The notes beneath the pieces were generated by a model. That model worked only from the letters and a program-made list of their open reading frames with translations. It was not told the origin of the DNA and ran no database searches. Shown here one piece after another: positions 10,127-62,525 of a stretch of DNA of 64,000 bases. Each line of letters starts with the position of its first letter. Position 1 is the stretch's first letter. Source of the DNA: a virus; the IMG/VR virus record IMGVR_UViG_3300014205_000225, positions 2,826 through 66,825 of that record; one strand, written 5' to 3'. A program made the position numbers and the translations under genes.

Positions 10127-10156
10127 TTGACTGTTCCCTTGGTATGGGATATGCTA
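10127..10156 (+). promoter_or_regulatory. late promoter upstream of terS (overlapping sigma70 TTGACT-17-TATGCT and sigma54 TTGGTATGGGATATGCT)
   Basis: both spacings fit exactly. Confidence 0.55.
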
Positions 10157-10246
10157 GTTTGTACCCCGCAAAACAGTCAACAACCCAGATCCCCAAAAAA
10201 CAGCACTGGGATCAACCATACCCATATCGAAAAGGAGACCGCTACA

Positions 10247-11050
10247 ATGGCCAGAAAGTACCACGCCCATCAAAAAACCCACCTCACCGAGGAGGCAATT
10301 CCGCAAGACATACGGCAAGACGCCACCCAAGCTCTGTTAGTTACCACCCAGCAAAATCCCCTCGATACGGTACAGATAAAGGATCAAGATACAGGGGAAT
10401 TCCTCCCCATTGAAGAGGTAATCGCCCAGTACAGAAAGGCACCTAAAGGACCGGGAGGAGCCCCAGGTACATATGATCCCGAATTCCACCCAAGGGCCGC
10501 GTTTTTATTATGCGCCGAGCACGGGTGTAACCACCCTACCCTTGCCACTCATTTTGGTGTTTCCCCTTCTACAGTAAAGGCCTGGGTATGGCGTTATCCA
10601 GAGTTCGCGGTTTCTGTAAAAAACGGATGGAGTTATCACATGGTCAATTCCGCGGAGCGGGCGCTGGTTAAGCGCGCTTGTGGCTATGTTCACGAGGAGG
10701 TGAAATATGCTCGAGTTCCTATATATGAAACGATCTTTACACCAGCCGGGGAGCCCCGCAAGGTTGTTACGGGGTTCGAGGAGGTAGTCGCCGAACGCAC
10801 GGTTAAGCAACAGCCCCCGGATACTACCGCGCTTATGTACCTGCTACAGAACAGGGATGGCGCCAGGTGGAAGAATGTGCGCAAGGTGGAACAGCACGTG
10901 CAAGTAGACCATACGTTGCCAGGCACCCCCACCACGGCCACCCCAGCGCAAGCCGTGGTCGAGCTTACAACCGCAGAGCTAGAACAAGTGTCCGCCACGG
11001 CAGCCCGCCTTGGCATGTTACCGGGCACGGGCACGGGGAACGCTGGGTAA
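10247..11050 (+). CDS. terS: terminase small subunit
   Basis: HTH (LATHFGVSPSTVKAWVWRYPEF), ALVKRACGY, PPDTTALMYLLQNR..W; precedes terL. Confidence 0.85.
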   Translation: MARKYHAHQKTHLTEEAIPQDIRQDATQALLVTTQQNPLDTVQIKDQDTGEFLPIEEVIAQYRKAPKGPGGAPGTYDPEFHPRAAFLLCAEHGCNHPTLATHFGVSPSTVKAWVWRYPEFAVSVKNGWSYHMVNSAERALVKRACGYVHEEVKYARVPIYETIFTPAGEPRKVVTGFEEVVAERTVKQQPPDTTALMYLLQNRDGARWKNVRKVEQHVQVDHTLPGTPTTATPAQAVVELTTAELEQVSATAARLGMLPGTGTGNAG

Positions 11051-11054
11051 CAGG

Positions 11055-11260
11055 TGGCCGGGGAACCGCGCGGGACAGGGGTACCCCCCCACCATACCCA
11101 AGGGCAACCATACCCAGGGGACCGGGACCGGGGGACAGCGGGGGGACACCCCCCAGGGCAGGGCAGGGGGACGGGGGGAGCCCAGGCACACGGCGCCGGG
11201 GGGGACCGGGGCAGGGCAGGGGGACCGGGGGGGCACCCCCCCCCCCTTGCCGGCGGATAC
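11055..11260. repeat. G-run-rich non-coding region between terS and terL
   Basis: many GGG+ tracts, repeated CAGGGCAGGGGG, GGGGGG..CCCCCC hairpins. Confidence 0.7.
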
Positions 11261-11416: not shown

Positions 11417-12877
11417 ATGACACGCACAATGCAGGATGCAACAATGGCGCAGGTAGGGGCCATGTTTGGTAATAAGAAGGTGATGCAGGCAGTACAAAAG
11501 GAGCTTGCGACAAGGAAGCTGCGGTCTTTCATAAAAACGATGTGGAGATACTTGGACCCGGCGCCGTACATACACGGATGGCACATTGATTGTATTTGTG
11601 AGCATTTGGAAGCGGTGTTGGCCGGGGATATTAGGCGGTTGTTGATTACGATGCCGCCGCGTCATATGAAAAGTATTGCGGTTTCTGTTTCATTCCCTGC
11701 TTGGGCATGGTTAAGTGATCCGAAACTTCAGTTTTTGTTTGCTTCGTATGCGCATACGCTTTCCATTCGGGATTCGACTAAGTGTCGGCGGGTTATTGAG
11801 AGTCCACTTTATCAAGAGTTTTGGAAAGATTCCTTTCAGTTGACTACTGATCAGAACACTAAGATCCGGTTTGACAATGATCAGGGTGGGTATCGAATCG
11901 CAAGTTCTGTGGACGGGGCTATCACTGGGGAAGGTGGGGACATCATAGTGGTGGACGACCCGCATAACGTGAGACAGGCAGAAAGCACCACTCAGCGCCA
12001 GGCAGTTTTGGACTGGTGGGACGAGGCTATGAGCACTCGTTTGAATAACCCAAAAACTGGTAGGATGATCATTGTTCAACAGCGTGTCCATGAAAACGAC
12101 TTGGCCGGACACGTTATGGAGGTGGGGGGATGGACTCATTTGAACTTGCCTGCTAGATATGAGTCTGATAACAAATGTATCACTCCAATATGGAAAGACC
12201 CCCGTGTTTTGGAAGGAGAATTGCTTTGGAAAGAGCGTTTCGGGGAAGAAGAGATGGTTGCTCTGGAACGGGCGCTCGGGCCTTACGGTACGGCAAGCCA
12301 ACTTCAGCAACGCCCTTCGCCAAGAGAGGGGGGCTTGTTCTTGGCCGATAAAATAGGGATTCATGAATTTGCCGTTGGAATGGTCCCGGAAAACGGGTGG
12401 GTCCGTAGCTGGGATAAAGCCGGTTCCGTGCTCACAGGGGCTTATTCCGTTGGGGTTAAGTTCGGAAAAACAAAAGATGGAAGATTTGTTATCGGCGATG
12501 TTGTTCGAGGACAATGGGGCAGCGCAAAACGAGAACGCATGATAAAACAAACTGCGGAAATGGACGGTAGCCTCTGTCCAATTATCATAGAACAAGAGCC
12601 TGGATCTGGTGGAAAAGAGTCTGCGGAAAATACGGTACGCAACCTTGCCGGGTTTTTCGTTATTGTGGACAGACCTACCGGAAACAAAGAAACCCGCGCA
12701 TATCCCCTCAGTTCTCAAGTAAACATGGGAAATGTTCTTCTGCAACGCGCCCCTTGGAATAAAGCCCTGTTAGACGAATTTCGAATGTTCCCAAACGGAA
12801 AATACAAAGACCAAGTGGACGCCACGAGTGCAGCATTCAATTATCAATGTGGGAAAAGAGTTGCAGGAGGGTGGTAA
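11417..12877 (+). CDS. terL: terminase large subunit
   Basis: MPPRHMKS, ITGEGGDIIVVDDP, SWDKA, EQEPGSGGK, FPNGKYKDQVDA. Confidence 0.97.
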   Translation: MTRTMQDATMAQVGAMFGNKKVMQAVQKELATRKLRSFIKTMWRYLDPAPYIHGWHIDCICEHLEAVLAGDIRRLLITMPPRHMKSIAVSVSFPAWAWLSDPKLQFLFASYAHTLSIRDSTKCRRVIESPLYQEFWKDSFQLTTDQNTKIRFDNDQGGYRIASSVDGAITGEGGDIIVVDDPHNVRQAESTTQRQAVLDWWDEAMSTRLNNPKTGRMIIVQQRVHENDLAGHVMEVGGWTHLNLPARYESDNKCITPIWKDPRVLEGELLWKERFGEEEMVALERALGPYGTASQLQQRPSPREGGLFLADKIGIHEFAVGMVPENGWVRSWDKAGSVLTGAYSVGVKFGKTKDGRFVIGDVVRGQWGSAKRERMIKQTAEMDGSLCPIIIEQEPGSGGKESAENTVRNLAGFFVIVDRPTGNKETRAYPLSSQVNMGNVLLQRAPWNKALLDEFRMFPNGKYKDQVDATSAAFNYQCGKRVAGGW

Positions 12878-12905
12878 TTTAGCGATAGTACCGCAAAGGA
12901 GGAGA

Positions 12906-12990
12906 CGGTCGGAAACGACCGCCCCGCAGCGGTCGGAAACGCCCGGTCGTTTATATAGTAAAGAAAAGGGTCATTTTTAAAAGCTATATA
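12906..12990 (+). repeat. origin-like element; 31-bp exact inverted copy of a segment inside the replication initiator gene (61024-61054)
   Basis: AACGACCGCCCCGCAGCGGTCGGAAACGCCC plus shared AGAAAAGGGT and AAAAGCTA. Confidence 0.8.
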
Positions 12991-13034
12991 GCAAAAAATA
13001 AACCTAGTGAAACTGATGTAGGAGACTATTGGAA

Positions 13035-14513
13035 ATGAGAACAAATAAAACTAACCCCTCCACCAATGTCCAAGACGACCTCCGATTCCAAGCCCTCTCC
13101 ACTCTCGTCTCCAGGTCCGTTCTTTCCTCTTATTTGGGCCAGAGTTATAACGGGAACCGAGACCTGTACGCCGCTCTCGGTTATGTGGGGGACTCCGAAT
13201 TATCGTACAACCACTACTATGCTCGATATGCGCGCCAAGATATCGCCCAGCGACTCATTGACGCCCCGGTGACAGCAAGTTGGCGAGATGTTCCGAAACT
13301 TGTAGATGGAACAGAGGGTAATGACGACTCTACTACCGCTACACCATTTGAAAAAGCCTGGGCAAACCTTGTGCGAAATAGAAAACTGCGGCTGTTTAGC
13401 GCATTTCAGAATGTTGACAGGTTTGCCGGACTTGGTCAGTACGCGATTCTTGTGCTTGGATATGAAGGAGACGCAAATCTGAGTCTTCCTGTTATCCCTT
13501 CCCAAAACAAGAAATTGGCATACCTTCGAGCATTTGGGGAGGGTAGCGTGGGGATTGGTACATTGGAAAACGACCCGGCAAACCCCCGGTATGGAATGCC
13601 CAAATACTACACTATCAAATCAACAACGATGCCGCAACGGGATATGATCAGGAATATCCATTGGTCTCGGATTATCCATGTGATTGACGGCCTCACGGAA
13701 AGCCCAACTTACGGGATCCCACGTCTTAAATGCGTTTTCAATCGGTTGATGGATTTGGAAAAGGTGGCCGGGGGTAGCGCCGAGATGTATTGGCGTGGCG
13801 CACGTCCAGGCATGCAGTTTGACCTTGACCCAGAAAGCATGATGACCCCGGAAAGCAAGGACGCTTTAAAGACGCAACTGGACGAGTACGAAAACAACCT
13901 GCGCCGTATTTTGAGAACGCAGGGGGTTAAAATCAACCCATTGGCCCCTCAAGTGGCGGACCCCGAAAAGTTTATTGATACACAAATCACTCTAATTTCT
14001 GGGGCTACCGGAATTCCAAAACGGATTCTTACAGGAAGTGAGCGCGGGGAATTGGCAAGTACACAGGATGCGCATAACTGGAACACCATTGTTCATGAAC
14101 GAAGAACCGATTTTTGCGAACCTAACATTTTGTGCCCGTTCATCGAACGCATGATCGAGCATGGGGTTATCCCGGAAACAGACGAAGGGTTTTATACGGT
14201 GGAGTGGCCGGACTTGTTTGCCCCATCGTCCAAAGAACAGGCCGAAGTTTCCAAAATGCGAGCGGAAGCATTGATGATGTACTGCAACAGCCTTACCGGG
14301 CCATCTATTATCCCTCCGGCTGTGTTTGTGGAACTTATCATGGGCTTTGACGGAAGCAAGCTCAAAAAGATTCTTGATGCAATGAAGGAATTTCAAGGTT
14401 CTGAAGATGAGGCCCATATTTTCGAAATTATGGGGACGGATGATGCCGCGCAAGGGGGGCGTAATCCAAATCAAGAACAAGAAGAGGAAGAAGAAATGGT
14501 GGGTGCAGAATGA
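13035..14513 (+). CDS. portal protein (DUF1073 family)
   Basis: RQDIAQRLIDAP, IHWSRIIH, SGATGIPKRILTGSERGELAS; position after terL. Confidence 0.9.
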   Translation: MRTNKTNPSTNVQDDLRFQALSTLVSRSVLSSYLGQSYNGNRDLYAALGYVGDSELSYNHYYARYARQDIAQRLIDAPVTASWRDVPKLVDGTEGNDDSTTATPFEKAWANLVRNRKLRLFSAFQNVDRFAGLGQYAILVLGYEGDANLSLPVIPSQNKKLAYLRAFGEGSVGIGTLENDPANPRYGMPKYYTIKSTTMPQRDMIRNIHWSRIIHVIDGLTESPTYGIPRLKCVFNRLMDLEKVAGGSAEMYWRGARPGMQFDLDPESMMTPESKDALKTQLDEYENNLRRILRTQGVKINPLAPQVADPEKFIDTQITLISGATGIPKRILTGSERGELASTQDAHNWNTIVHERRTDFCEPNILCPFIERMIEHGVIPETDEGFYTVEWPDLFAPSSKEQAEVSKMRAEALMMYCNSLTGPSIIPPAVFVELIMGFDGSKLKKILDAMKEFQGSEDEAHIFEIMGTDDAAQGGRNPNQEQEEEEEMVGAE

Positions 14514-21411: not shown

Positions 21412-22967
21412 TTTTTCGTCCTGACATAAAACCCCCCATGTGGGGGCCACTTAGTGCTGTGCAGTATGCTGTGATGGTTAATGCTGAGCGGATGGGGATA
21501 GATCCCTCGGCGTTAAAATTGGTTTCCCCTTTCTGGGAGACCGCGGGCAGCATCATATATGACGCCACCCTTCAAAACGACATATCGACGACTCTGCCGC
21601 TGTGGGTGCCAGCAGGCTACAGATGCAGCACAACAAATAAATTTTCGCCGGGCAAAACATTGGCGACGTTGCTTGGCTCGACAACATCTCCATTCACGAT
21701 CTTGACACTTGCAGATATAGTTTCGCGGCCAACATCATCTAACTTTTTACTTGGTCAATACCAAGATGGCGGGACTGGGTATGATCTAGGCTTTTATCAG
21801 TCGTCTTCCACGAGGATCATATCGTACTATTATAAGTCCGGATCAAATGTACAATTATCGCCCGGAGTCGTAGAGAGCGGCGCAAGCATAAGCCTCGGGG
21901 TTACTTGGGACGGGGCTAGTATCACGGGGTATTATGGTGGAGCCTTAGCCTCTATTGCGTCGCATAGCTCGGCGCTTACGACGACACACACGTTTAAGGC
22001 TGGTGGGGTGGGGGCGGGTGGGAACGGGACACATGACCACAAATTTCTGATCGTGTGTTCATCCGCGCTTACCGCTGACCAGATCGCCCAACTCCACGCC
22101 ACCCCCTACGCCCTGCTCATGCCGGTATCGCGCCCTGTGTATTTTGATCTTGGGGCGACAACTGGCGCGACGCTAACCACCGACAGCGCCTGGAAAATCT
22201 ACACGGACGCCGAGATTGACACCGCATGGGCTATCCGCGCCGAGCTGAGCCAATCCGCCGCATGGGCCGTCTTTACCCGCGCCGATGCCGAGAGCGCGTG
22301 GAGCATCCGCACATCAGCCGAGGCGGAAACGGCGTGGACGGTTCGCGCCGGGTTGGATACGCCGACCGCGTGGCCCATTTCCACCGCAGCCGACACGCAG
22401 ACGGAATGGCAGATCAAGGCCGGACTCGACGCGGAAACGGCGTGGCCGATCTTCACCGCCGTCGATACCGCTACCGCGTGGGCTATCCTCGATTCCCTGG
22501 CCCTGGAAACACCCACGGCCTGGGCGATCCGCAACGCCCTCGCCGCCGATGCCGCGTGGAGTATCCGCACCGCCCTCGATACCGGAAGCGCGTGGGCGAT
22601 CCTCTCCCGGCTGGACCGGGAAACCGCCTGGCAGATACTCGGCGCTGGCATCCTCGACACGCCGACCTCTTGGGCCATCCGCGCGGATCTTGATCAGGCG
22701 ACCGCATGGACGATCAAGACCAGTCTCGACGCGGACACGGACTGGACCATCATCAACGGGATGGACACGGCGACGACCTGGGACATCCTGCAAGGCTTCG
22801 CCACCGATACCGCATGGCAGGTTTACCGGGGACTCGACACCGCAACCGCCTGGAGCATCATCAGCGATACGGTCCCCGAGCCGGTGAAAGTGTTCATGGC
22901 CGAGCGCCGGGATTTCATCATCAACGCCGAAAAACGAATCTTTATCCTCCTCGCAGAAAGGAAATAG
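21408..22967 (+). CDS. fibre protein: LamG/concanavalin-like domain followed by 19 twelve-residue Trp repeats
   Basis: GVTWDGASITGYYGG...ALTADQIAQLH LamG pattern; repeat (D/E)TAWxI. Confidence 0.75.
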   Translation: MIFRPDIKPPMWGPLSAVQYAVMVNAERMGIDPSALKLVSPFWETAGSIIYDATLQNDISTTLPLWVPAGYRCSTTNKFSPGKTLATLLGSTTSPFTILTLADIVSRPTSSNFLLGQYQDGGTGYDLGFYQSSSTRIISYYYKSGSNVQLSPGVVESGASISLGVTWDGASITGYYGGALASIASHSSALTTTHTFKAGGVGAGGNGTHDHKFLIVCSSALTADQIAQLHATPYALLMPVSRPVYFDLGATTGATLTTDSAWKIYTDAEIDTAWAIRAELSQSAAWAVFTRADAESAWSIRTSAEAETAWTVRAGLDTPTAWPISTAADTQTEWQIKAGLDAETAWPIFTAVDTATAWAILDSLALETPTAWAIRNALAADAAWSIRTALDTGSAWAILSRLDRETAWQILGAGILDTPTSWAIRADLDQATAWTIKTSLDADTDWTIINGMDTATTWDILQGFATDTAWQVYRGLDTATAWSIISDTVPEPVKVFMAERRDFIINAEKRIFILLAERK

Positions 22968-42754: not shown

Positions 42755-43049
42755 ATATTTCCTCCAGACGACGTCGTGCCGCGCCAATAACGGTATCTTG
42801 AACGTAAAACCCACGGACGTTTCTCACCGCCCACAATATCCATTCTGGGTGCCGATTAATGATTGTTTCTATGGTGCAGGTTTCGTAAGGCCCAAATTCT
42901 AAAACAGATAGCTTTGTTCGGATGACTCGTTCTTTCGGACGGTATAACCGCTCCATTTCTTGTATTTCTTCATCGGTAAAGTCTTTTTTCGTTTTCACAG
43001 GACACCGCAATAAGATTCTTTTTGTGGAGTCTTGTGCTGCATCGGCCAT
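42723..43049 (-). CDS. hypothetical protein with ExoX C-terminal-like motif
   Basis: FGPY...IETII...PEWILW. Confidence 0.55.
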   Translation of the reverse strand: MADAAQDSTKRILLRCPVKTKKDFTDEEIQEMERLYRPKERVIRTKLSVLEFGPYETCTIETIINRHPEWILWAVRNVRGFYVQDTVIGAARRRLEEIYGKGKAAPRN

Positions 43050-44170
43050 TAACTTTCTTCGGACCGCCGCCGCCGACTTTGGTTGTTCTGCTGGTTGTTT
43101 TGGTGGGATTGTTCGCATGAGGAATCAGCCTTTCCGCACAAAGGGCAAATATCAGGCATTAACGCATTAAATTCTTCCGAATACTTCTTAATCTCCCCCC
43201 CTTTTTTCGATACCAAGGAGCCCCCAGTTTTTATTTCAAGGAGTGCGTCTTGTAATTTGCAAACAGAGTTTTCTATAAAAACCCCGTCTTTTAACAAGGT
43301 GCTTAATTTGGCGGTTGCCGCAGGTGCCCCGTCTAAGTTTGGTAGCTTTGCCAAAGAGGTGCATATTGTTTGGATATTATAAATGATTTTTTGAAGCGGT
43401 TCCGTTTTTTCAAAAAGCCCCTTTATGTCGCTAAGGTGCTTTGTTGCAGAAACATCCGCTCTTTTCATCTTGGAAAGGAATACGCGGGTCTTGTCAACAA
43501 AATCAGAGAGCGTGGAAAGCTCCCGGACCATGTTTTCTATATCATCCCGTTTTCGTACCGTGTTGGCCTGCTTTTCCATTAACGCTTTTAGCAGGGCGCA
43601 GTCCTTTTCCATGTCTTCGATATAATCGTACTGGGCGACTTTCTCCTCTAAGGTTTCTACCCTACGGACACAAAGGGCGTGATCCCTTTTAGCAGAAAGC
43701 AATTCTTTATTAATATTCGAAATAGTTGTATCGATTATATCTAGATTGACAATTTTGTTCAAATACCGGGCCACTTCCCCGCCGGTAGAACCGAGAAGAA
43801 ACGGGGCGTCCATTTGTGTCTGAACATTTACATTTCCGATACAAAGGGCGTCTTGAATTTCCTTAGGCGGTTCCCCGGAACCAAAGGCCCGCAGTTCTTT
43901 TCCATTTAAGATGTAGCAGTTATCCTTGTCCGTGCGTTTTCTTGTAATGGTAGTGCCGTCGGTAAGGGCGATCGTCACAGCCGTATCGCCGCCCCAGTAG
44001 CTTCGAAATGCGTCTCCGCCTGGTTTGTTGTAGATTACCCAGTAAAGGGCGCGAAACAGGGCGCTTTTGCCGCTATCCGATTTTCCTACAATCGCATTTA
44101 CCCCATCAGACAGTTCTATCTTTGTGTCTTTGTGAGATTGGAAATTTTGTAAATGGATGCTTTTTATCAC
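43049..44170 (-). CDS. SbcC/Rad50 ATPase N-terminal part with zinc hook
   Basis: NFQSH, GKSDSGKS Walker A, CPLC near C-terminus. Confidence 0.9.
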   Translation of the reverse strand: MIKSIHLQNFQSHKDTKIELSDGVNAIVGKSDSGKSALFRALYWVIYNKPGGDAFRSYWGGDTAVTIALTDGTTITRKRTDKDNCYILNGKELRAFGSGEPPKEIQDALCIGNVNVQTQMDAPFLLGSTGGEVARYLNKIVNLDIIDTTISNINKELLSAKRDHALCVRRVETLEEKVAQYDYIEDMEKDCALLKALMEKQANTVRKRDDIENMVRELSTLSDFVDKTRVFLSKMKRADVSATKHLSDIKGLFEKTEPLQKIIYNIQTICTSLAKLPNLDGAPAATAKLSTLLKDGVFIENSVCKLQDALLEIKTGGSLVSKKGGEIKKYSEEFNALMPDICPLCGKADSSCEQSHQNNQQNNQSRRRRSEES

Positions 44171-44600: not shown

Positions 44601-45023
44601 TTATTTTCTCCCTTTTTTGTGCCCAGGGATAAGTCGTAACAGGTCAAAGAAAACATCCATGTCTATTGTAACAAGAGCAGATTCGCGATCCCGTCTTGTT
44701 ACCAATAACCAGTCTGTGCTTGGGAGTTGGTTGGCTTTTGCTTGCCGCACAGCATCCGGAAAACTGAAACTGTTCCCGGCCTTACATTCCACGCTCCAAG
44801 GAAATGCCTCCCGTGCATCAGCAATAAGACGAATGTCCGTGCCATTTTGTCCCATTTCCCGGCTGGCTATCATTTCGTCTTTACCAAAAGTGTACCCGGT
44901 AAGTATGCTGATTTTCTCACCTGTCAATTTTTGTAAGTTGCGCCCTTTTGCTTTCGCGCTACTTGTTTTAATCTTTTTTTTCTTTACTGGGGTTTCCCCA
45001 GCGGCACAGGTTCTCGGAGACAT
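44601..45023 (-). CDS. Holliday junction resolvase (PD-(D/E)xK)
   Basis: SAKAKGR, GTDI, SVECK, QAKAN. Confidence 0.8.
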   Translation of the reverse strand: MSPRTCAAGETPVKKKKIKTSSAKAKGRNLQKLTGEKISILTGYTFGKDEMIASREMGQNGTDIRLIADAREAFPWSVECKAGNSFSFPDAVRQAKANQLPSTDWLLVTRRDRESALVTIDMDVFFDLLRLIPGHKKGRK

Positions 45024-45035
45024 TGCTGTACCTTT

Positions 45036-45254
45036 CTACGCAAAAAGTCCACGCTGGATAGCAATCCATTCTTCAATCAGTAAAGGGACGGGGTTGTCGG
45101 TGTTAAGCATTGTCTGTTCGTCTTCTTCGATAGGCCAGTTCTTAATGTGCGCCTTCTTGAGACTGACCCCGCTGTCCAGCATAACCGAGCTGTTCCCAAT
45201 GAAAACGACTTTTGCATGGATAATTACTTTGGACATATATAGGCACCCCTTCAA
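45036..45254 (-). CDS. hypothetical protein
   Basis: LLIEEWIAIQRGL C-terminus. Confidence 0.6.
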   Translation of the reverse strand: MKGCLYMSKVIIHAKVVFIGNSSVMLDSGVSLKKAHIKNWPIEEDEQTMLNTDNPVPLLIEEWIAIQRGLFA

Positions 45255-46342
45255 TATTTGGGTTTTCGGTCTAGCCGCAAAGAGGCTTCTATTTCGCTCC
45301 AGGCTTCCCCGGTTATTTTCCTCAACTCCTTTTCCAAGTGGCCATCTTCAATGGTGCGGATAAGTTTTTCCCTGGTACAACTCAGGTCAAAATGAGTGGC
45401 ATTGATTTTTTGCCCCGTCTTCGTCCAATACCCCTCACTCTGTAGAAAGTCTATGCAACTTCCTATATCGTCGATACCGTAGTCGTAGAAAATGGGTAGC
45501 GTTGTATCTCGACGTTTCCCCGTGATTTTGTTTTTGGTTGTCTTGAGTATGGCGTCTACCCCAACAACCCGCTCCCGTTTTTTGTGCGTTTTGCCTATTG
45601 CCGCCCATACCTCATGGGTTGCATAAAACTTGAGGGCGCGCCCCCCGGCCCGCGTTTTTTTGCTAAAGCTCATGGGGTCGATATTGTCGCGGGTTTGGCT
45701 GATAATAATAAGCAGGGAGTTTGTCTTGCTAATTTTTCGAATGATAAGGCGGAACAATTCACTCATCCCTTTTGCCTTTGTCATTCCATAGCTGCCTTTT
45801 ATATCCTTGCCCTTTGCCCGAGCCATTCGCTGTTCCTCGTACTTGTTTATTTCCTCTTCACTGCCAATGGAATCGAGGCTGTCAAGTACATAGATAAACG
45901 GGCGCCCGTCGTCCAGAGCATCGTGGACGTTGTCGCAAAAAGCCTGCACAGTGTCGCTGGCAGGCTTGGCGGTGTCCTGGTTTGGTGGTTCGATTCGGTC
46001 AGCAACCTTATCCCCAAATAGATAAGGAATGTCAAAGGCGCAGGCTGCTTCGGCATCGTCATAGATAAAGCGGTAGTCCTTAAACCGTTTCAGCATGGCT
46101 GCTTCGGCAAAGGCTGTCAGGGCAAGAAATGTTTTGCCGCTGGAGCTGTCCCCGATAATGTTTGCCATTGTGCCCAAGGCGTACCCACCGTCAGCGCGGT
46201 CACTCAGCATCAAGTTAAACAATGTGCTCCCAGTAGGCAAAAAACCGGAAGCATCCATAGGACGCGAGCTTCGTTCTTTTGGCTCTTCTACGGAAGCGTT
46301 AATTTGTTCGCCTATGTCAGACACATTATTTTTTCGGGCCAT
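45251..46342 (-). CDS. recA: RecA/UvsX-like recombinase
   Basis: GDSSSGKT, DAE, LDSLDS, ISQTRD, GGRALKFYA. Confidence 0.92.
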   Translation of the reverse strand: MARKNNVSDIGEQINASVEEPKERSSRPMDASGFLPTGSTLFNLMLSDRADGGYALGTMANIIGDSSSGKTFLALTAFAEAAMLKRFKDYRFIYDDAEAACAFDIPYLFGDKVADRIEPPNQDTAKPASDTVQAFCDNVHDALDDGRPFIYVLDSLDSIGSEEEINKYEEQRMARAKGKDIKGSYGMTKAKGMSELFRLIIRKISKTNSLLIIISQTRDNIDPMSFSKKTRAGGRALKFYATHEVWAAIGKTHKKRERVVGVDAILKTTKNKITGKRRDTTLPIFYDYGIDDIGSCIDFLQSEGYWTKTGQKINATHFDLSCTREKLIRTIEDGHLEKELRKITGEAWSEIEASLRLDRKPKY

Positions 46343-46526
46343 TTTCCAGAAACTCCTCAAGAAGTTTTTTGTTCACATTCCAACGGCTACCTTCACCAAG
46401 TGGTTGGTATCCGAGGTTATTCGCCTTAATCCATTTGATCATGGTGGCATATACACAATGAATACCTTTCTTTTTGGCAAGCTCTAAAGCGGTCGGAACA
46501 CCTATCATCTCTACTTGGTCATTCAT
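46326..46526 (-). CDS. small HTH (excisionase-like) DNA-binding protein
   Basis: ATMIKWIK...GSRWNVNK. Confidence 0.6.
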   Translation of the reverse strand: MNDQVEMIGVPTALELAKKKGIHCVYATMIKWIKANNLGYQPLGEGSRWNVNKKLLEEFLENGPKK

Positions 46527-50232: not shown

Positions 50233-51600
50233 TCATAAAATACCAGATAAATCAAGTTTCCCCTTTTGGCTCCAAGGGGTGTCCACAGGGCTTCCCTCTA
50301 CATCCGCCAACATTGGAACGGTTATCCAAGCATAGTGTTCTACTAATTCCCGTTCCATGACCCGGTGTAACGTCCGCACAACCAATTCCAACTCACTCGG
50401 ATGCACGTCCAAGACCATCTCGTCGTGAATTTGCCCAACAATGCGACTTTTCCAATTATCTCTAATAGAAATTTCTGTAACACGGCACAAACTCCACAAA
50501 AGACAATGAAACGCGCTACCCTGTATCGGGTAATTAACGGCGTCGTTTCTAGACATAACCGTTTGGCAGCGGAAACCAGTATAAGTATCGAAGTACCCCT
50601 TGTTTTGGTACGCTTCCCACCAGTCCTCTTTCCATTGTGCGTACACTGGAAAGCGGGTATACCAAAAAGACCGCTCCACTTTCTTAACGTGGTTTTCAAA
50701 TGCTTCCGGAGTACCAATCCCGACTTTTTTCATGTGCCGTAGCAGGGGGGTCCCGTCTGCAAGTTTTGCATAATCCTCGTTGAGAACGTCCTGCCACATC
50801 CCTTCGGCACAACTCTTATACCAATCCCCATAGAACTGAGCAAAAACAAATTTTCCCTTGGCAATGTTGCGCACCGGCTTAATAATTTGGGGGGGTTTTA
50901 GCTTAAACAGTTCCAAGGCCATGTCTCGGTGCATGTCCTTGGAGCTGTCTTTATTATAAGTGGTCATTGTTGGGTCGTGGTGGTAGCTGTTTGCTATGCG
51001 TACTTCCGCACCGCTATAATCAGCGCACAGCAACAAATGCCCTGGGCGGGGGATTATCGCTTGTCTAGCAAGCAACTTCATTTCCGGGTCGCGATTTGGT
51101 ATATTCTGAAAATTAGGGGAACTGCTGCTTGATCTGAAAGTAATGACGCGGTTCAAGTTGAAGAATGGGTGCATTACCCCATCAATTTGCTCTTTTAAGA
51201 AATTCCCGAGGTACGTTGTTTTTATCTTTTCAAGTTTGCGGCATTCCAAGAGCTTTACAATATCCGCTTGCCCGGTAGCTCGGAGGGACTCTTCGTCCGT
51301 ACTTGCTTTTCCACTTGCAGTCTTCTTAGATGGGGTGTACCCCAAATCAGAGTACAAAATTTGTGCAAGGTGGTCATTGCTTGCGGGGTTAAACTTTCTT
51401 CCATAGACCTTTCGTCCGGCGGCAAATAGGGGGCTGTCTTGAAGCTCCCCCATTGTATTTTCGATACGACGTTCCACTCTGCGGATTGTTTTATTGCAGT
51501 ACGCAACATCGATACAAAGCCCTTGTCGCTCCGCCAGCGCCAGCGCCCAGGTGCCCCGGTGTAGCAAAGAAAACGCTTCACTTGTGACCGGCATTAACAT
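50233..51600 (-). CDS. family A DNA polymerase, polymerase domain
   Basis: SSSSPNFQNIP, ADYSGAEVR, R..AK..F..FYG, NYPIQGSA, QIHDE. Confidence 0.95.
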   Translation of the reverse strand: MLMPVTSEAFSLLHRGTWALALAERQGLCIDVAYCNKTIRRVERRIENTMGELQDSPLFAAGRKVYGRKFNPASNDHLAQILYSDLGYTPSKKTASGKASTDEESLRATGQADIVKLLECRKLEKIKTTYLGNFLKEQIDGVMHPFFNLNRVITFRSSSSSPNFQNIPNRDPEMKLLARQAIIPRPGHLLLCADYSGAEVRIANSYHHDPTMTTYNKDSSKDMHRDMALELFKLKPPQIIKPVRNIAKGKFVFAQFYGDWYKSCAEGMWQDVLNEDYAKLADGTPLLRHMKKVGIGTPEAFENHVKKVERSFWYTRFPVYAQWKEDWWEAYQNKGYFDTYTGFRCQTVMSRNDAVNYPIQGSAFHCLLWSLCRVTEISIRDNWKSRIVGQIHDEMVLDVHPSELELVVRTLHRVMERELVEHYAWITVPMLADVEGSPVDTPWSQKGKLDLSGIL

Positions 51601-52832
51601 TGCATATCCTTTAATAAATCGAACAAGTGCCCTTGTTGTTTCTGGGCCAGTTGATATTCAAGCAAAGCATCGAGGCCGTTGTAAATGAGAAGTTCCTTTT
51701 TGGGGGCTAAATGGATGCGGTTAAAAGCGTTGCCGCCGTGAGCGCGTTCTTCTTCCGCATCTGCTTTAAGGTAATCCAAAACAGCGTCCTCATATCCAAG
51801 GACACCTAGTTGCACATACGTTTGAAATTTTAACCCAGTTATGTCGTTTCTATTGTCAAGCTGATGTGTAACCAGCATGGTATCCCATATCCAATTATTG
51901 ACACCATGCCCGCAAATAATGTTTGTCCATAAGTCCTCAAATTTCATATTCTGCGCTATCTTGCCAACGCCGCTTTCCATCAATTTTCGCCATGCCCGGA
52001 GAGTACCCCGTTTTTTGGGCCATTCAAAGGCGAAGGCTTTATTCATGTCGTTACATACAGCGCAAGAAACAATTCGGTGTCCCTGTCTGTATGGTTTCAG
52101 TCCAGTTGTTTCATAGTCAAAAGCAACCTCTCCCATATCCGATTTTGTCATATCATACAATAAGTCTTCAATGTCCGACTCTTTGTCTAATATTTCAACG
52201 CACTTAAATTCGTCGGTATATGATGGGAGGGGGGTAGTTAAAAGCCCCGCTGCCAAAGCCAAGTCCTTGCGCCAAATTGCAAGCACGGAGCGGTTTTTCT
52301 CTGCTACCTGGGCAACATGGTTGGGAGACATAACCGGCACAATCCACGCGCCAAATTCGCGGTCTGGGATGGCCCACCCGCGCCATTTGTCGATGCCACC
52401 GATACCGCCATTTACCCTGTGCCCAACTAAACTTTCTACCGCGCCAATCCCAAGGGCGATTATCACATTCGGACGCATCTTTTCTATTTCCGCCAAAACA
52501 TCTGGTCGGCAGTATTCCACTTCTAGGGGGGTCGGTTCCCTATCTCCTTTTGGGCGGCACTTTACCGCATAGGTTTTTCGGCAATCAAGCCGTAGGTCTA
52601 ACCCTACCCTGTTAAGCTCTTTCCGTAACAGGTTATCTCCGGCACCAAACCCCTCTTCATCCTCCCTGGCGTTTGGCCTGTCCGCAATTACAAGAACCTT
52701 CGTCCCTTTTCCATGCGTTTCCATTTTGGCAATATTGCATTGTAGATGAAGGCCGCACCCTAGACAGCCCTTTATTTTTCTAATCGTTGCCGCAGTTGCC
52801 GTTTCTTGTGTAGTAAAAAACCCTTCCACCAT
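51594..52832 (-). CDS. UDG-like domain + 3'-5' exonuclease (N-terminal half of split polymerase)
   Basis: C..C.L, VKCRP..DREPT, IIALG; FDYETTGL, QNMKFE, DTML, YNGLDA. Confidence 0.88.
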   Translation of the reverse strand: MVEGFFTTQETATAATIRKIKGCLGCGLHLQCNIAKMETHGKGTKVLVIADRPNAREDEEGFGAGDNLLRKELNRVGLDLRLDCRKTYAVKCRPKGDREPTPLEVEYCRPDVLAEIEKMRPNVIIALGIGAVESLVGHRVNGGIGGIDKWRGWAIPDREFGAWIVPVMSPNHVAQVAEKNRSVLAIWRKDLALAAGLLTTPLPSYTDEFKCVEILDKESDIEDLLYDMTKSDMGEVAFDYETTGLKPYRQGHRIVSCAVCNDMNKAFAFEWPKKRGTLRAWRKLMESGVGKIAQNMKFEDLWTNIICGHGVNNWIWDTMLVTHQLDNRNDITGLKFQTYVQLGVLGYEDAVLDYLKADAEEERAHGGNAFNRIHLAPKKELLIYNGLDALLEYQLAQKQQGHLFDLLKDMQC

Positions 52833-58355: not shown

Positions 58356-59897
58356 TCATTTTTTCCTGGGTTGTATCCAATAACTGGATAGGATGGGGCG
58401 TCCCATTTCTAAACGCCCTAATAGAGCAACTTCCCGCTCTGCTGATAAATCTTCGCGTACTAGCAATTCACCGATCCGCAAAATACCGTCCCCCTTTTCT
58501 TCTGGGGTTTGGTTCAGTCCATATACCGCAGTGACATGACTGTATTTTCGTTTGTCTTCGCTAAAGTTTTTGAGTTTAACGCTTTTTTGATCATAGCTTG
58601 CCGCGTCGGCCTGTGTTGCCGTTATAACACATGCTCGGCGTTTCTGACTAAGTCTCCGCAACGCCTTCCAGGTATCATTTATTTGGTGCCGCGCTTCTTT
58701 GCGTGTATCTTCCGGGGCTAAAATGTCTGCATAGTCCCCAACAATCACGTCCGGGATAAATCCATCTTCTATTTCCCATCGGTCCAACACAGCGTCAAGT
58801 TGTCGCACATTCACGGAATCGTTTGGAAAACAGGCCAATTTAAAACCCTTCCCCCGGACTCTTTTGACGTACCGTTCCCCTTCCCGTATGGCTTCTTGCC
58901 ATGTCAACGGTTTTACAGGGGCGCGCATTTCCCACCAATATGCCCCCTTGTACCTGTTAGGGTGTTCCCTTTTACAGTAGTCGCATGGTACATACCCGGA
59001 GGCCTCGTCAAAGGATAACTTAGCACCGTCAATCATACACCCGAATGTTCCTATTCTGTTTGCCATTTGGCAGGTGTCGTTTTGATTTAGCGCGCAGTCC
59101 AAAATTGGTACGAGCAGCCCACCGCAATACTTGGCGTCGTCACTCCGCTTTGCTAAATAAATATGCTGTCGTCGAACCATTTGGTCCTGTGACATATCAC
59201 CAAGTCCAAAAAAGGCCACATTGCAGCGTTCCCGATGCGCCCACATAGAAAGGGTCATCAAAAGCCATGTTTTACCCCGCTTCTCCGGACCTTGAAGACA
59301 TATAAGTGATTCCCTTGTAAATTGGCTGTTCCACATATCCCCGATAGCCCCAGGCAACTTAAACAAAGGCTCTTCTCTGGAAGCAAACCCAGCTTGTATT
59401 GCTTCTACATCTGTGAATGGGTCTATCCCAACTTTGCCCGGTTTTTCTACGGTATTAAATTTGGAAACAAGCTCCTTAGCCTCTTCCATATCCCCGGCAT
59501 TTAGCGCGCCACGAACATCGTCTAAATGGTTTCTTAGCGACTGTTCCTCGAAATATGCAATGGACTGGTCGAGCAGGTAGTCCACATTAAATTTGTCTGC
59601 GCGTTTATATTCATCGTCAATACTTGCTAAAAATTCAACGATGTACTCTGCATTATCTGGGTCTAGCGTTTTTTCAGCATGGTATTGGTAAAGATCCCGA
59701 ATATGCGGCCCAGGGGCTTTATTGTACTTCTCAAAATATTCCAGACACCACTCTGCAACGGACCTAATCGGGTCCACTGTTAAAAAATCGGTTTTGAAAA
59801 CAGGGGTTACTTCCCGTAAATACCGATCACTTACAATCATTCCAGTAATAATATTGCGTTCTATATGACTTGTAGGCTTTCTTCTCGACACTGCCAT
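58356..59897 (-). CDS. DnaB-like (SF4) replicative helicase
   Basis: GPEKRGKT, DYADIL, ITATQA, FSED. Confidence 0.85.
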   Translation of the reverse strand: MAVSRRKPTSHIERNIITGMIVSDRYLREVTPVFKTDFLTVDPIRSVAEWCLEYFEKYNKAPGPHIRDLYQYHAEKTLDPDNAEYIVEFLASIDDEYKRADKFNVDYLLDQSIAYFEEQSLRNHLDDVRGALNAGDMEEAKELVSKFNTVEKPGKVGIDPFTDVEAIQAGFASREEPLFKLPGAIGDMWNSQFTRESLICLQGPEKRGKTWLLMTLSMWAHRERCNVAFFGLGDMSQDQMVRRQHIYLAKRSDDAKYCGGLLVPILDCALNQNDTCQMANRIGTFGCMIDGAKLSFDEASGYVPCDYCKREHPNRYKGAYWWEMRAPVKPLTWQEAIREGERYVKRVRGKGFKLACFPNDSVNVRQLDAVLDRWEIEDGFIPDVIVGDYADILAPEDTRKEARHQINDTWKALRRLSQKRRACVITATQADAASYDQKSVKLKNFSEDKRKYSHVTAVYGLNQTPEEKGDGILRIGELLVREDLSAEREVALLGRLEMGRPILSSYWIQPRKK

Positions 59898-59898
59898 A

Positions 59899-60645
59899 TT
59901 AACCCCTGTCCTGTAAACGGCGGTCCGTTCCATTCAAAAATATAATATTACGCCCACATAACCCCAAAATTCTGCTTGCAATCCTATCCCCAACAACATC
60001 GCTTATTTCTTGAGGGGTTAGGTTAGATGTAAAAATGGTTTGCGAGCCTTCTCTATACCGCCGATCTATGATTAATCCTAACGTAGCAACCGTCCATTCC
60101 GTCGGTTTTTCTGCACCAATGTCATCTAGTACCAAGATATTTGCAGAAGTGTATTTGTCCAGCACCTCTACCTCGTTGGCCTTTCCATTATAACAAGACC
60201 GTATTTCTAAGAGCAGGTCCGCCGACGTTACGAACAAAGCCCCAAATTTGCCGGACTGTTCCATTTGCGCCAATAGCAAGGCTACTGCGGCATGTGTTTT
60301 CCCTACACCACGGCTCCCGGTAAACAGGGCGCTTTGACCAATTAACGGTCTTAGCTTAACACAGTCTTGGATAGATGCTTTTTGGTACTCTTTTGGTATA
60401 CAAGCCTTTTCCATAATGGTGTTCTTATGCAGGGAAAATAATTTCAAGGCATTGGTCTGTTTTGTGTCCACGGCACATTCTTCACAAATGAGCAATGCCC
60501 CGTCAACATCAACTCTGATGGGGTTTTTCTTGCAATGCGGGCACGTTCTAGGCTTAGTCAAGTTGAATAACCTTTCCGATTCCCGCATATTTTCCTGAAT
60601 CAGTGTTTTTGTTTCCTTTTCCAAGAAATTTGTTCGCGCCACCAC
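59899..60645 (-). CDS. DnaC/IstB-like helicase loader
   Basis: GSRGVGKT, LVLDDIGAE, TSNL, DRIASR. Confidence 0.9.
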   Translation of the reverse strand: MVARTNFLEKETKTLIQENMRESERLFNLTKPRTCPHCKKNPIRVDVDGALLICEECAVDTKQTNALKLFSLHKNTIMEKACIPKEYQKASIQDCVKLRPLIGQSALFTGSRGVGKTHAAVALLLAQMEQSGKFGALFVTSADLLLEIRSCYNGKANEVEVLDKYTSANILVLDDIGAEKPTEWTVATLGLIIDRRYREGSQTIFTSNLTPQEISDVVGDRIASRILGLCGRNIIFLNGTDRRLQDRG

Positions 60646-61432
60646 TGTCTCCTTTTATATCGAAAAGACCGCGCCATTCGTTAGCCATGCTTTGCTGCAT
60701 TATGGCGACGGCGAGGTCGGCATCCCCATTAGAAAGGTTTACGAGCTTCGCACCGACATTAGAAGTTCGGATGGGGGATTTGATTTGTTTTCGGTATGAA
60801 ACAAACTCATCCCATGTATTCATTAGCCTGCGGCTATCTAAAAACTGGACTGGGAATGCTTTTATTAGAGCCGTGTCTTTTTTTGGGGTGGGAGGTGATA
60901 CAGCCCCAGGTGGTATGGTTCTTCTATGGGCTGGTTTTGTTACCTGCTGGGTGTTTGAGATCATTTCGCTGTGTAGCTTTTTATTCTCTTTAACCTTACC
61001 CTTTTCTGTAATAGTAATAGGCAGGGCGTTTCCGACCGCTGCGGGGCGGTCGTTCGCGCCCGGTACGGGGGGAACCTTTCCACCACTTTCCTCACCAGAC
61101 TCTTGCCCAGGTTGTGTTGGCCTGAAAATCTCATGATACACAAAATAGTATTTGTTCGGGGCATGGTTTAGCCTGTCCACCCCACTAGGCCGCTCCACTT
61201 TAATAAACCCCTCGGTTTCCAGTTCTTTTAGCAACTTTCGTACCCGTTCAGAACTGAGACCAATTTCTTCAGCGAGAACTTCTTGCTTTGGCCAGCAATA
61301 CCCCTTTTCCCCGGAATATTGGGAAAGACGTGCCCATAGTAGTTTTGCGGAGGAGCTTAGGTTTGGATAGCGGAGGAGGCAGTTAGGGAGGAACGAGCCA
61401 ACGAACATTCGATATGGGACGAATAGGTCCAT
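60554..61432 (-). CDS. replication initiator (lambda O-like, N-terminal wHTH)
   Basis: LSSSAKLLW..L, CWPKQEVLAEEIGLS..RVRKLLKEL...GFI; C-terminal QSMANEWRGLF; upstream of DnaC. Confidence 0.85.
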   Translation of the reverse strand: MDLFVPYRMFVGSFLPNCLLRYPNLSSSAKLLWARLSQYSGEKGYCWPKQEVLAEEIGLSSERVRKLLKELETEGFIKVERPSGVDRLNHAPNKYYFVYHEIFRPTQPGQESGEESGGKVPPVPGANDRPAAVGNALPITITEKGKVKENKKLHSEMISNTQQVTKPAHRRTIPPGAVSPPTPKKDTALIKAFPVQFLDSRRLMNTWDEFVSYRKQIKSPIRTSNVGAKLVNLSNGDADLAVAIMQQSMANEWRGLFDIKGDSGGANKFLGKGNKNTDSGKYAGIGKVIQLD

Positions 61433-61456
61433 AGAAATACGCTCTCGTAAGTTTTG

Positions 61457-61540
61457 AAAAAGCAAAGGCTGCTGAGGGATGGTGACGGCACCCCTGCAAC
61501 AGCCTTGCTCTACAACACTGAAAACGCTAACCCCGTCACG
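61457..61540 (-). promoter_or_regulatory. attenuator-like leader of initiator gene
   Basis: terminator hairpin 61461-61509 + U-run; loop CCGTCAC complementary to upstream GTGACGG (61533-61539). Confidence 0.6.
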
Positions 61541-61566
61541 GTATATTGCGTTATTTTTGAAACTAC

Positions 61567-61595
61567 ATTTTAGCATTAGCCCCGTTTGGTTGCAA
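61567..61595 (-). promoter_or_regulatory. sigma70 promoter for initiator
   Basis: TTGCAA-N17-TAAAAT with TGn extension. Confidence 0.6.
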
Positions 61596-61598
61596 GCC

Positions 61599-62525
61599 TT
61601 ATTTATGCAATAATTCCATCATAAGGTCTGCGGCCTCTGTTTGTGGCATATCCCCAGGGTCCAGCTCATCATCCGTACAAAGCACTTCCACGTCAATACC
61701 ACGGGCGGAAAGTAGGTTTGCCGCCCTGTCTGCTCTATCCTGTGCGGAAGGTTCCGGATCAAATAGCAGGAATGCCCGTGTAAACTTTCTACAGAACAGG
61801 TTTAATTGTGGAATCGTGAAACCAGTTCCGAAAGTTGCAACTGCCCCAGGCCCAAGTCTCCAAGCATCCGCAGCACCTTCTACAATGACAGCGGTATCCC
61901 CCGGTACAAGGTCTATTCCGTACAAAGTATGTTTGTGATGTACCACTTCATTTTCCATTGCACATGCTTTGTATTTTAGATCGCTTTTCCCGGTAATGTC
62001 CCGACCTTGGTAGCTTACCATTTTCCCTTCTAAGAAAATTGGTATGATAATACGGTTACGGTATTCGCCAACTGGGCCAGTACCCAAAAGCCCCCACGTT
62101 AAAGCTACATCCTCGGGGTCAAATTTGCGGCCAGCAAGGTATTTACGGTGCCTGGGTAACATGGGGCCGCAACCACCGGGAAGGCGCAGGACAACGGGCG
62201 CTAGGTTACTGCTGACCCGTATTTGTATTTCTTTCCGTGCTTTGCGCCCTGTTTCATACTTTCGGATAATTGTAAGGGCTTTCTCTTTGTTGCATTGAAG
62301 AGATAACCGCACAACATCTACTAGACGATGTTTCCCACAATGCCAACAATTCACCGCCCCTGTTTCTAGATGGTAGCCAAGAAACCACTTGCCCCGGTGT
62401 CCGCAAAATGGGCAGTATGTTTGCACCCATCCTGGACGATTGTGTTTGGTGCCTTCTGTCCTGTATTGGATACCCTGTTCGGAACATAGCCGGATAAAAT
62501 CAATCACCGCAACACCTTTTATCAA
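61599..62525 (-). CDS. DNA primase (Zn finger + TOPRIM)
   Basis: CPFC...CWHC, RIIIP, YQGR, IVEG..D, FD, DPGD. Confidence 0.9.
   Translation of the reverse strand: MIKGVAVIDFIRLCSEQGIQYRTEGTKHNRPGWVQTYCPFCGHRGKWFLGYHLETGAVNCWHCGKHRLVDVVRLSLQCNKEKALTIIRKYETGRKARKEIQIRVSSNLAPVVLRLPGGCGPMLPRHRKYLAGRKFDPEDVALTWGLLGTGPVGEYRNRIIIPIFLEGKMVSYQGRDITGKSDLKYKACAMENEVVHHKHTLYGIDLVPGDTAVIVEGAADAWRLGPGAVATFGTGFTIPQLNLFCRKFTRAFLLFDPEPSAQDRADRAANLLSARGIDVEVLCTDDELDPGDMPQTEAADLMMELLHK

Follow-up and report, generated by a model that had tools for sequence, protein, structure and literature searches.

A non-coding second copy of a phage's origin-like module between its terminase and portal genes: a candidate docking site for the initiator

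Why would the gap between two late genes of a phage carry sequence that is also found, in inverted orientation, inside the gene for the phage's own replication initiator? The locus that raises this question belongs to an uncultured phage known from a linear IMG/VR virus record of 66,825 bases (91% complete according to CheckV), of which bases 2826-66825 were analyzed; this stretch of 64,000 nucleotides is referred to here as the window, and positions are counted from its first base. The features around both copies are collected in Table 1. The intergenic copy had been placed between a terminase and a portal gene in the original prediction, a setting that the Pfam and PHROG matches of its two neighbors bear out. 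The other copy lies in a gene with an "O-like" match, surrounded by further replication genes.

Table 1. Genes and sequence features around the two copies, in window coordinates.
Feature	Position	Strand	Identification and remarks
Small terminase subunit (terS)	10127-11050		phrog_309
Terminase large subunit (terL)	11417-12877	+	stop codon 12875-12877; PHROG phrog_38, E=1e-91; Pfam Terminase_6C
terL-portal gap	12878-13034	+	157 nt; lineage-specific insertion
Origin-derived segment, pseudo-coding initiator-linker copy	12906-13017	+	local alignment to the 61-kb copy; conceptual translation
Iteron block, intergenic copy	12906-12949	+	half-sites CGGTCG 12906, CGACCG 12916, CGGTCG 12930, CGGTCG 12944
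31-nt core, intergenic copy	12914-12944	+	exact match, same as initiator-gene copy
AT-rich tract, candidate DNA-unwinding element	12950-13019	+	76% AT; contains islands AGAAAAGGGT and AAAAGCTATATAGC
Portal gene	13035-14513	+	ATG 13035; Pfam Phage_portal_3, E=2.4e-36; phrog_146, E=4.3e-68
SbcC-like exonuclease	43049-44170	-	recombination set adjoining replication genes
RusA-like Holliday-junction resolvase	44601-45023	-	recombination set adjoining replication genes
UvsX/RecA-like recombinase	45251-46360	-	recombination set adjoining replication genes
DnaB-like helicase	58356-59933	-	downstream of initiator; weak DnaB_C match, E=2.2e-4, under Pfam cut-off
DnaC/IstB-like helicase loader	59899-60645	-	downstream of initiator; Pfam IstB_IS21, E=1.5e-13
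Replication initiator	60554-61576	-	HTH_36, residues 72-125; phrog_678 "replication initiation O-like", E=2.7e-19
Origin module in initiator linker	60960-61062	-	position of the iteron blocks of relatives
31-nt core, initiator-gene copy	61024-61054	-	same as intergenic copy; encodes ..NDRPAAVGNA..
Primase	61599-62525	-	upstream of initiator; Pfam DNAG_N and Toprim_2

The phage also encodes a polymerase and a clamp loader of its own. The DNA polymerase gene, at 50233-52832 (-), is split or frameshifted, and the adjacent open reading frames at 50233-51600 and 51594-52832 (-) match positions 834-1227 and 469-828 of phrog_17, respectively. As to the initiator, its true start is probably M49 at 61432 and not the start of the listed 340-residue open reading frame, and the homologs P0003 and P0004 begin at the position equivalent to M49 in the homolog alignment. 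Its Pfam matches are HTH_36 and weak HTH families only, and its comparison with solved structures gave no sequence match at E up to 1. Repeats of other kinds were observed elsewhere in the window. Between terS and terL, at 11153-11234 (+), a G-rich 29-nt sequence (CCRGGGCAGGGCAGGGGGAC..) occurs twice at a distance of 53 nt and could be a candidate packaging site. In addition, a 60-nt unit occurs nine times at 22211-22858 (+), in a region of 62% GC, its copies being spaced by multiples of 36 or 6 nt; this is probably the repeat domain of a structural (tail or fiber) protein.

The exact inverted match of 31 nt from which the prediction had started is present precisely twice in the window, and also only twice in the whole 66,825-base record; no third copy was found in either at up to three mismatches, where chance would predict none, and none of 100 shuffles yielded two matches. 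Direct repeats of CGGTCGGAAACG had been claimed as well, and these were recovered at 12906 and 12930, together with one more at 61027 (-); three occurrences compare with 0.35 expected in the window, a count reached in one of 100 shuffles. Likewise, the downstream islands AGAAAAGGGT (12962-12971) and AAAAGCTATATAGC (12979-12992), said to be shared, do have counterparts at 61 kb. The homology proved wider than had been described, a gapped local alignment of 12906-13017 with 61062-60960 scoring 104, with 85 of 113 columns identical (75%), 11 gap columns and exact runs of up to 31. With the same aligner, 1952 random 220-nt pieces of the window gave a mean score of 22.3 (sd 4.1) and a maximum of 45. 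The duplication is thus real and far beyond chance. Each copy is sense-oriented with respect to its own local genes, an agreement that has even odds of arising by chance.

We then focused our attention on the anatomy of the intergenic copy. Its iteron block holds two exact 12-mers CGGTCGGAAACG, 24 nt apart, and the palindrome CGACCGC-N6-GCGGTCG at 12916-12935. The half-sites CGGTCG/CGACCG occur 31 times in the window, but at least two of them within 60 nt only at the 12.9-kb and 61-kb loci. The AT-rich tract that follows ranks fourth in AT-richness among the non-overlapping 70-nt stretches of the 64-kb window. The module in the initiator gene has one exact iteron and one degenerate one (CGGGCGCGAACG, 9/12), again 24 nt apart, and two exact half-sites, at 61033 and 61047 (+ strand coordinates), against four in the intergenic copy; its order is CGGGCGCGAACG-ACCGCCCCGCAG-CGGTCGGAAACG-CCCTGCC.., and the AT content of its tract is approximately 66%, as against 76% in the intergenic copy. 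The AT-rich motif AAGAGAATCA, found in relatives as described below, has no match in the intergenic copy and one 9/10 match in the gene module. Moreover, the scan for promoters and terminators found nothing in the terL-portal gap; one promoter-like and one terminator-like site were found inside terL, which equals the chance rate. No RNA data set was listed as containing this stretch, a result that has no bearing on expression.

That an initiator of this type carries its origin in the linker that follows the HTH domain had been the premise of the prediction, and it holds for the family. We compared 12 IMG/VR loci with related initiators (the L010 locus ends at the match, before its linker). In eight of the 12, the linker after the HTH contains direct repeats of at least 10 nt with a spacing of 23-48 nt, most of them palindromic. 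The iterons in the linkers of relatives number two or three, are spaced 23/24 or 48 nt apart, and lead into an AT-rich tract. A tandem AT-rich motif of the AAGAGAATCA type, spaced 13-15 nt, lies 3' of the iterons in eight of the 12 loci, and since this spacing is not a steady multiple of three, it is a repeat at the level of the DNA and not of the protein. The tandem motif was seen in L012-L018 and L020, which are very different phages (e.g., at 10391-10427 of L014 and 10381-10405 of L015). In the nearest relative with DNA (L009, initiator 48% identical), two exact 20-mers lie 24 nt apart and are followed by TCGTTTATAAGTAAAGAAAAG, and the corresponding period of eight residues is also seen in the linker peptides of P0002, P0011 and P0004. 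The 61-kb copy is located at the same position, its ..NDRPAAVGNA.. peptide belonging to the linker that joins the winged helix to the conserved C-terminal domain. Judged by its architecture, the level at which the assignment is made, the gene copy is a putative lambda-style origin inside the initiator gene, of a type that is family-wide.

The linker varies among close relatives of the initiator. Members P0008 and P0009 of its cluster have the linker of the window, and in P0002 and P0011 the N- and C-terminal domains are nearly identical to those of the window, with a very different linker (..GENNRSGAGENNRPFISKEKNQIEESKKLHT..). Overall, P0001, P0008 and P0009 on one side and P0002 and P0011 on the other are approximately 95-100% identical in both domains and represent two linker alleles; in P0009, the C-terminal variants of one allele go together with the linker of the other. 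From these sequences, the cassette that carries the origin appears to be exchanged by recombination. Two alleles in near-identical initiators also mean that such exchange could yield the patchy 31-nt identity between the two copies without selection.

The intergenic copy was derived from coding sequence. Its conceptual translation gives ..TVGNDRPAAVGNARSFI.. and, after a shift of the frame by one base, SKEKG..KLYSK, which reads as initiator linker with two 8-residue units. In addition, the intergenic stretch TCGTTTATA(T)AGTAAAGAAAAG equals the L009 gene sequence in 21 of 21 bases bar one inserted T. As the insert reads as linker and matches the gene of a relative, it was copied from the gene, and not the reverse. 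The window's own initiator gene has diverged at this TCGTTTATAAGTAAAGAAAAG stretch, where it reads CTGCCTATTACTATTACAGAAAAG, so the intergenic copy is nearer to the ancestral linker than the present gene is. A 7-nt direct repeat, AGGAGAC, was noticed by eye at 12900-12906 and 13020-13026, exactly flanking the origin-derived segment; by a rough, informal count, a bracket of this kind would coincide with the borders of the alignment by chance in a few cases per thousand. When the segment and one AGGAGAC are removed, a 44-nt junction is left, in which AAAGGAGGAGAC, a strong ribosome-binding site, is normally spaced from the portal ATG.

Next, the distribution of the second copy was considered. 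In the relatives with a related portal gene (L003-L008), the distance from the terL stop to the portal ATG is -1 to +1 nt in six of six, versus the 157-nt gap found here. Portal identity is 68% for L003 and 43% for L004-L008; because the latter five are almost alike, the six junctions represent two independent lineages. Six distant records (G006, G007, G008, G009, G010 and G012, four of them rated 100% complete) were searched with their own iterons, allowing one to three mismatches, and none has an iteron outside the initiator linker (G011, for which no iteron was definable, was left out of the count). The L009 iteron was found neither in the rest of the L009 record nor in that of L003. The second copy is thus not a trait of the family, and this family of phages does not need it. 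No cultured relative was found: in the phage collection, tblastn yielded a single weak hit, with 28.8% identity across 36% of the query, and the DNA search a single one at chance level (E=0.1). The metagenome scan provided three loci, all distant, and the prokaryote genome contigs one distant locus; the scan of viral contigs with the initiator alone returned none.

Near relatives do carry the insert. The terL-portal gap is covered in Logan contigs of four other metagenome runs, from four studies, and the insert is present in all four. In X8, a 151-nt contig covers 12864-13013 with two differences, and in X3, a 192-nt contig covers 12915-13106 with three; the gene copy is present in X3 too, where it shows up through loose ends at 12914 and 12944 that are its normal flanks. 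The two remaining runs have shortened inserts. The 5949-nt contig of X5, with 158 substitutions over 3101 bases, is without approximately 23 nt within 12891-12922, which takes away the first iteron and the CGACCG arm, and without the 30 nt at 12990-13019, and has 3 extra nt near 12972; of the 62 gap letters of this 3.1-kb alignment, 56 fall in the terL-portal gap. X7 is without the same 30 nt (12990-13019) and has further gaps. The parts missing in X5 and X7 are therefore at least dispensable. The second iteron and the proximal AT-rich part of the insert are free of indels in X5 and X7 among the variants listed (40 of 239 substitutions and 12 of 24 indels, from contigs that cannot show rare variants). 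Joints that would indicate inversion between the two inverted copies were not found in the run contigs. The original prediction had taken absence or decay of the copy in relatives, together with failure of the initiator to bind it, as the sign of a chance recent duplication; the absence is borne out for distant relatives, in the six records and at the six tight junctions, and among the near ones two of four are shortened.

What, then, may the intergenic copy do? Our preferred reading, held with modest confidence, is that this second, non-coding copy of the phage's putative origin module offers the initiator another place to dock, where it would act as a late origin or as a fork barrier. In the original prediction, a second origin or an initiator-titration site had been put forward beside a coupling to packaging or to late read-through. 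A second origin or initiator-binding site is still the best reading, given that iterons followed by an AT-rich tract, an SPP1-like arrangement, are present in the intergenic copy; for the coupling to packaging or read-through, we found nothing in support. According to the mechanism that we propose, the primary module would be the one in the initiator gene, with linker iterons after the winged-helix domain and then an AT-rich tract, as in lambda. Approximately 113 nt of such a linker would have been duplicated into the region where ribosomes bind ahead of portal, creating the 157-nt gap, and binding of the initiator there would provide a second docking site within the late operon, like oriR of phage SPP1. 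Since the iteron core is common to both copies, the initiator would be expected to bind the intergenic one, and we consider such binding likely. Whether the copy has a selected function seems an evenly balanced matter, and that it actually fires as an origin is rather doubtful. If it does fire, late transcription would cross this second origin in the same direction as early transcription crosses the first. Alternatively, a tight protein roadblock could stall forks and aid a switch to recombination-driven synthesis of concatemers, and the encoded RusA-like resolvase, SbcC-like exonuclease and UvsX-like recombinase are parts that this barrier model needs. In lambda, the minimal unwinding unit consists of two iterons and the adjoining AT-rich tract (PMC7466680), and the intergenic copy, with two exact iterons beside a strong unwinding-type tract, equals this unit in layout. 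Cumulative GC skew gave no origin signal: it turns near 8-10 kb and 37-40 kb, at neither copy, and these turns look like changes of gene direction, as seen from the strands of the open reading frames.

The main rival to this reading holds that the copy is a neutral relic, left by a templated or illegitimate insertion of approximately 113 nt of linker DNA at the portal ribosome-binding site that became fixed and is now eroding; the initiator may still bind it, with no benefit to the phage. We consider this possible but on the unlikely side. It agrees with the absence of the copy from distant relatives (none of six records, six of six tight junctions) and with the deletions inside the copy in X5 and X7, including the concentration of 56 of 62 gap letters of X5 there. 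The AGGAGAC repeat brackets exactly the homologous segment, as a one-off insertion would leave it, and the exchange of linker cassettes among close relatives makes stray copies plausible. Nevertheless, the non-coding copy retains more origin features than the coding one (four versus two half-sites, two exact 12-mers, 76% AT), and a 21-nt stretch of it agrees fully with the gene of a relative that shares only 48% identity in its initiator. Furthermore, the insert was kept in four of four runs from four studies, and its second iteron and proximal AT-rich part are free of indels among the variants listed. A further possibility, which we judge improbable, is that the origin is moving out of the initiator gene and that the intergenic copy has by now become the superior origin, or works as a late one. 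The full ancestral origin would then survive in the non-coding copy, with both exact iterons, all four half-sites and the strong unwinding tract, and the coding copy would have lost two half-sites and some of its AT-richness; transcription of the late operon would drive firing at the head of the packaging and portal module and feed concatemer synthesis. If true, this would show, in nature, an origin in the course of relocating through duplication and subfunctionalization.

The remaining explanations place the function of the shared sequence elsewhere. It could work at the RNA level, with the hairpins acting in mRNA, for instance on portal translation or transcript stability. Both copies are sense-oriented, mutually exclusive hairpins are possible (CGGTCG-GAAA-CGACCG or CGACCGC-N6-GCGGTCG), and the first of these, which had been predicted, is part of the minimum-energy fold. 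However, the fold z-scores of -2.27 and -2.25 are modest, as 6 and 5 of 200 shuffles fold equally well; the stretch 12600-13300 has no Rfam match at E up to 1, the gap has no terminator-like site, and the hairpin is not conserved, as X5 has lost the CGACCG arm. In addition, the palindromes of relatives are unrelated in sequence and share the 24-nt spacing, which fits protein-binding sites in DNA, and an RNA element is thus very improbable. Less probable still is an insertion, at both loci, of a mobile mini-element or of a sequence mimicking a host repeat, either of the REP-like kind or a solitary CRISPR repeat. A GC-rich palindrome followed by GAAAC and the 7-nt direct repeat flanking the insert would be compatible with it, but an exact search with a 26-nt core found nothing, either in IMG/VR or among genomes covering 185,579 species, and the record has two copies only. 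Moreover, the gene copy is in frame, at the iteron position of the relatives, and the intergenic copy keeps the codon phase of the initiator linker. A packaging-related site (pac or a cos accessory) adjoining the terminase genes is, to our judgment, just as hard to credit: the position directly after terL is what speaks for it, but the site is absent at the junction in six of six relatives with a related terminase and portal, and its sequence derives from the initiator gene. No pile-up of read or contig ends was seen there, although contigs show such ends unreliably.

The reading as a second initiator site has its closest parallel in Bacillus phage SPP1, in which oriL lies inside gene 38 and oriR in a non-coding gap among the late head genes, each consisting of direct repeats together with an AT-rich unwinding element (PMC6316719, PMC3485210). 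The SPP1 initiator gp38 (G38P) binds both origins with nanomolar affinity, and its binding at oriR has been proposed to stall forks and trigger the switch from theta to sigma replication (PMC6316719, PMC3485210). As a control, the interior of gene 38 was aligned with the gap between genes 7 and 8 in the SPP1 record (X97918), giving 98 of 138 identical columns, a longest run of 15 and direct orientation. The two phages are alike in having an origin module inside the initiator's own gene, putative in the phage studied here, and a second, similar module in a non-coding gap of the late head-gene region, with both modules sense-oriented. The short arc between the sites makes up approximately 28-29% of the genome and includes the terminase genes, and the similarity within the pair is of the same kind (98/138 columns in SPP1, 85/113 here). 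On the other hand, the initiators are without sequence similarity (BLASTP versus gene 38, E=5.9), and no Pfam Phage_rep_org_N match at E up to 0.01 was obtained here, so the SPP1-type layout is analogous and not homologous. The early genes are on the opposite strand here, hence the inversion of the copies in the genome; the second copy lies between terL and portal, whereas it follows gene 7 in SPP1; and the phage studied here has, unlike SPP1, its own polymerase and clamp loader. Binding and function were shown for SPP1, whereas we infer them here from sequence. By this analogy, the second copy is a new candidate example of the known SPP1-type two-site design.

Lambda resembles the phage studied here in the layout of the initiator gene, whose middle part, past the N-terminal DNA-binding domain, carries iterons and then an AT-rich tract, and in the helicase-loader gene that comes after the initiator (PMC7466680). 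It differs in having a single origin, with four or six iterons, whereas the present lineage has an extra non-coding copy; moreover, the initiator here matches HTH_36 and not Phage_rep_O, and only the "O-like" families of PHROG match it.

To these may be added the satellite phage P4, whose ori and crr are two separated sites with the same initiator repeats; the alpha protein, a primase-helicase, binds them, and crr is needed in cis. Both crr and the P4 origin are named in a published account (PMC9942202).

Taken alone, the locus would be an ordinary instance of a known design. To our knowledge, two-site origin layouts have been characterized experimentally in few phages only, with SPP1 as the chief case, and what the second site does is so far a model even in SPP1. 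The present example rests on an unrelated and widespread initiator family (HTH_36, "O-like"). Its insertion is datable, being absent from relatives and bracketed by a 7-nt repeat, and natural deletion variants exist that reveal which parts are dispensable. Given a host, it would provide a clean test of the role of a second initiator site.
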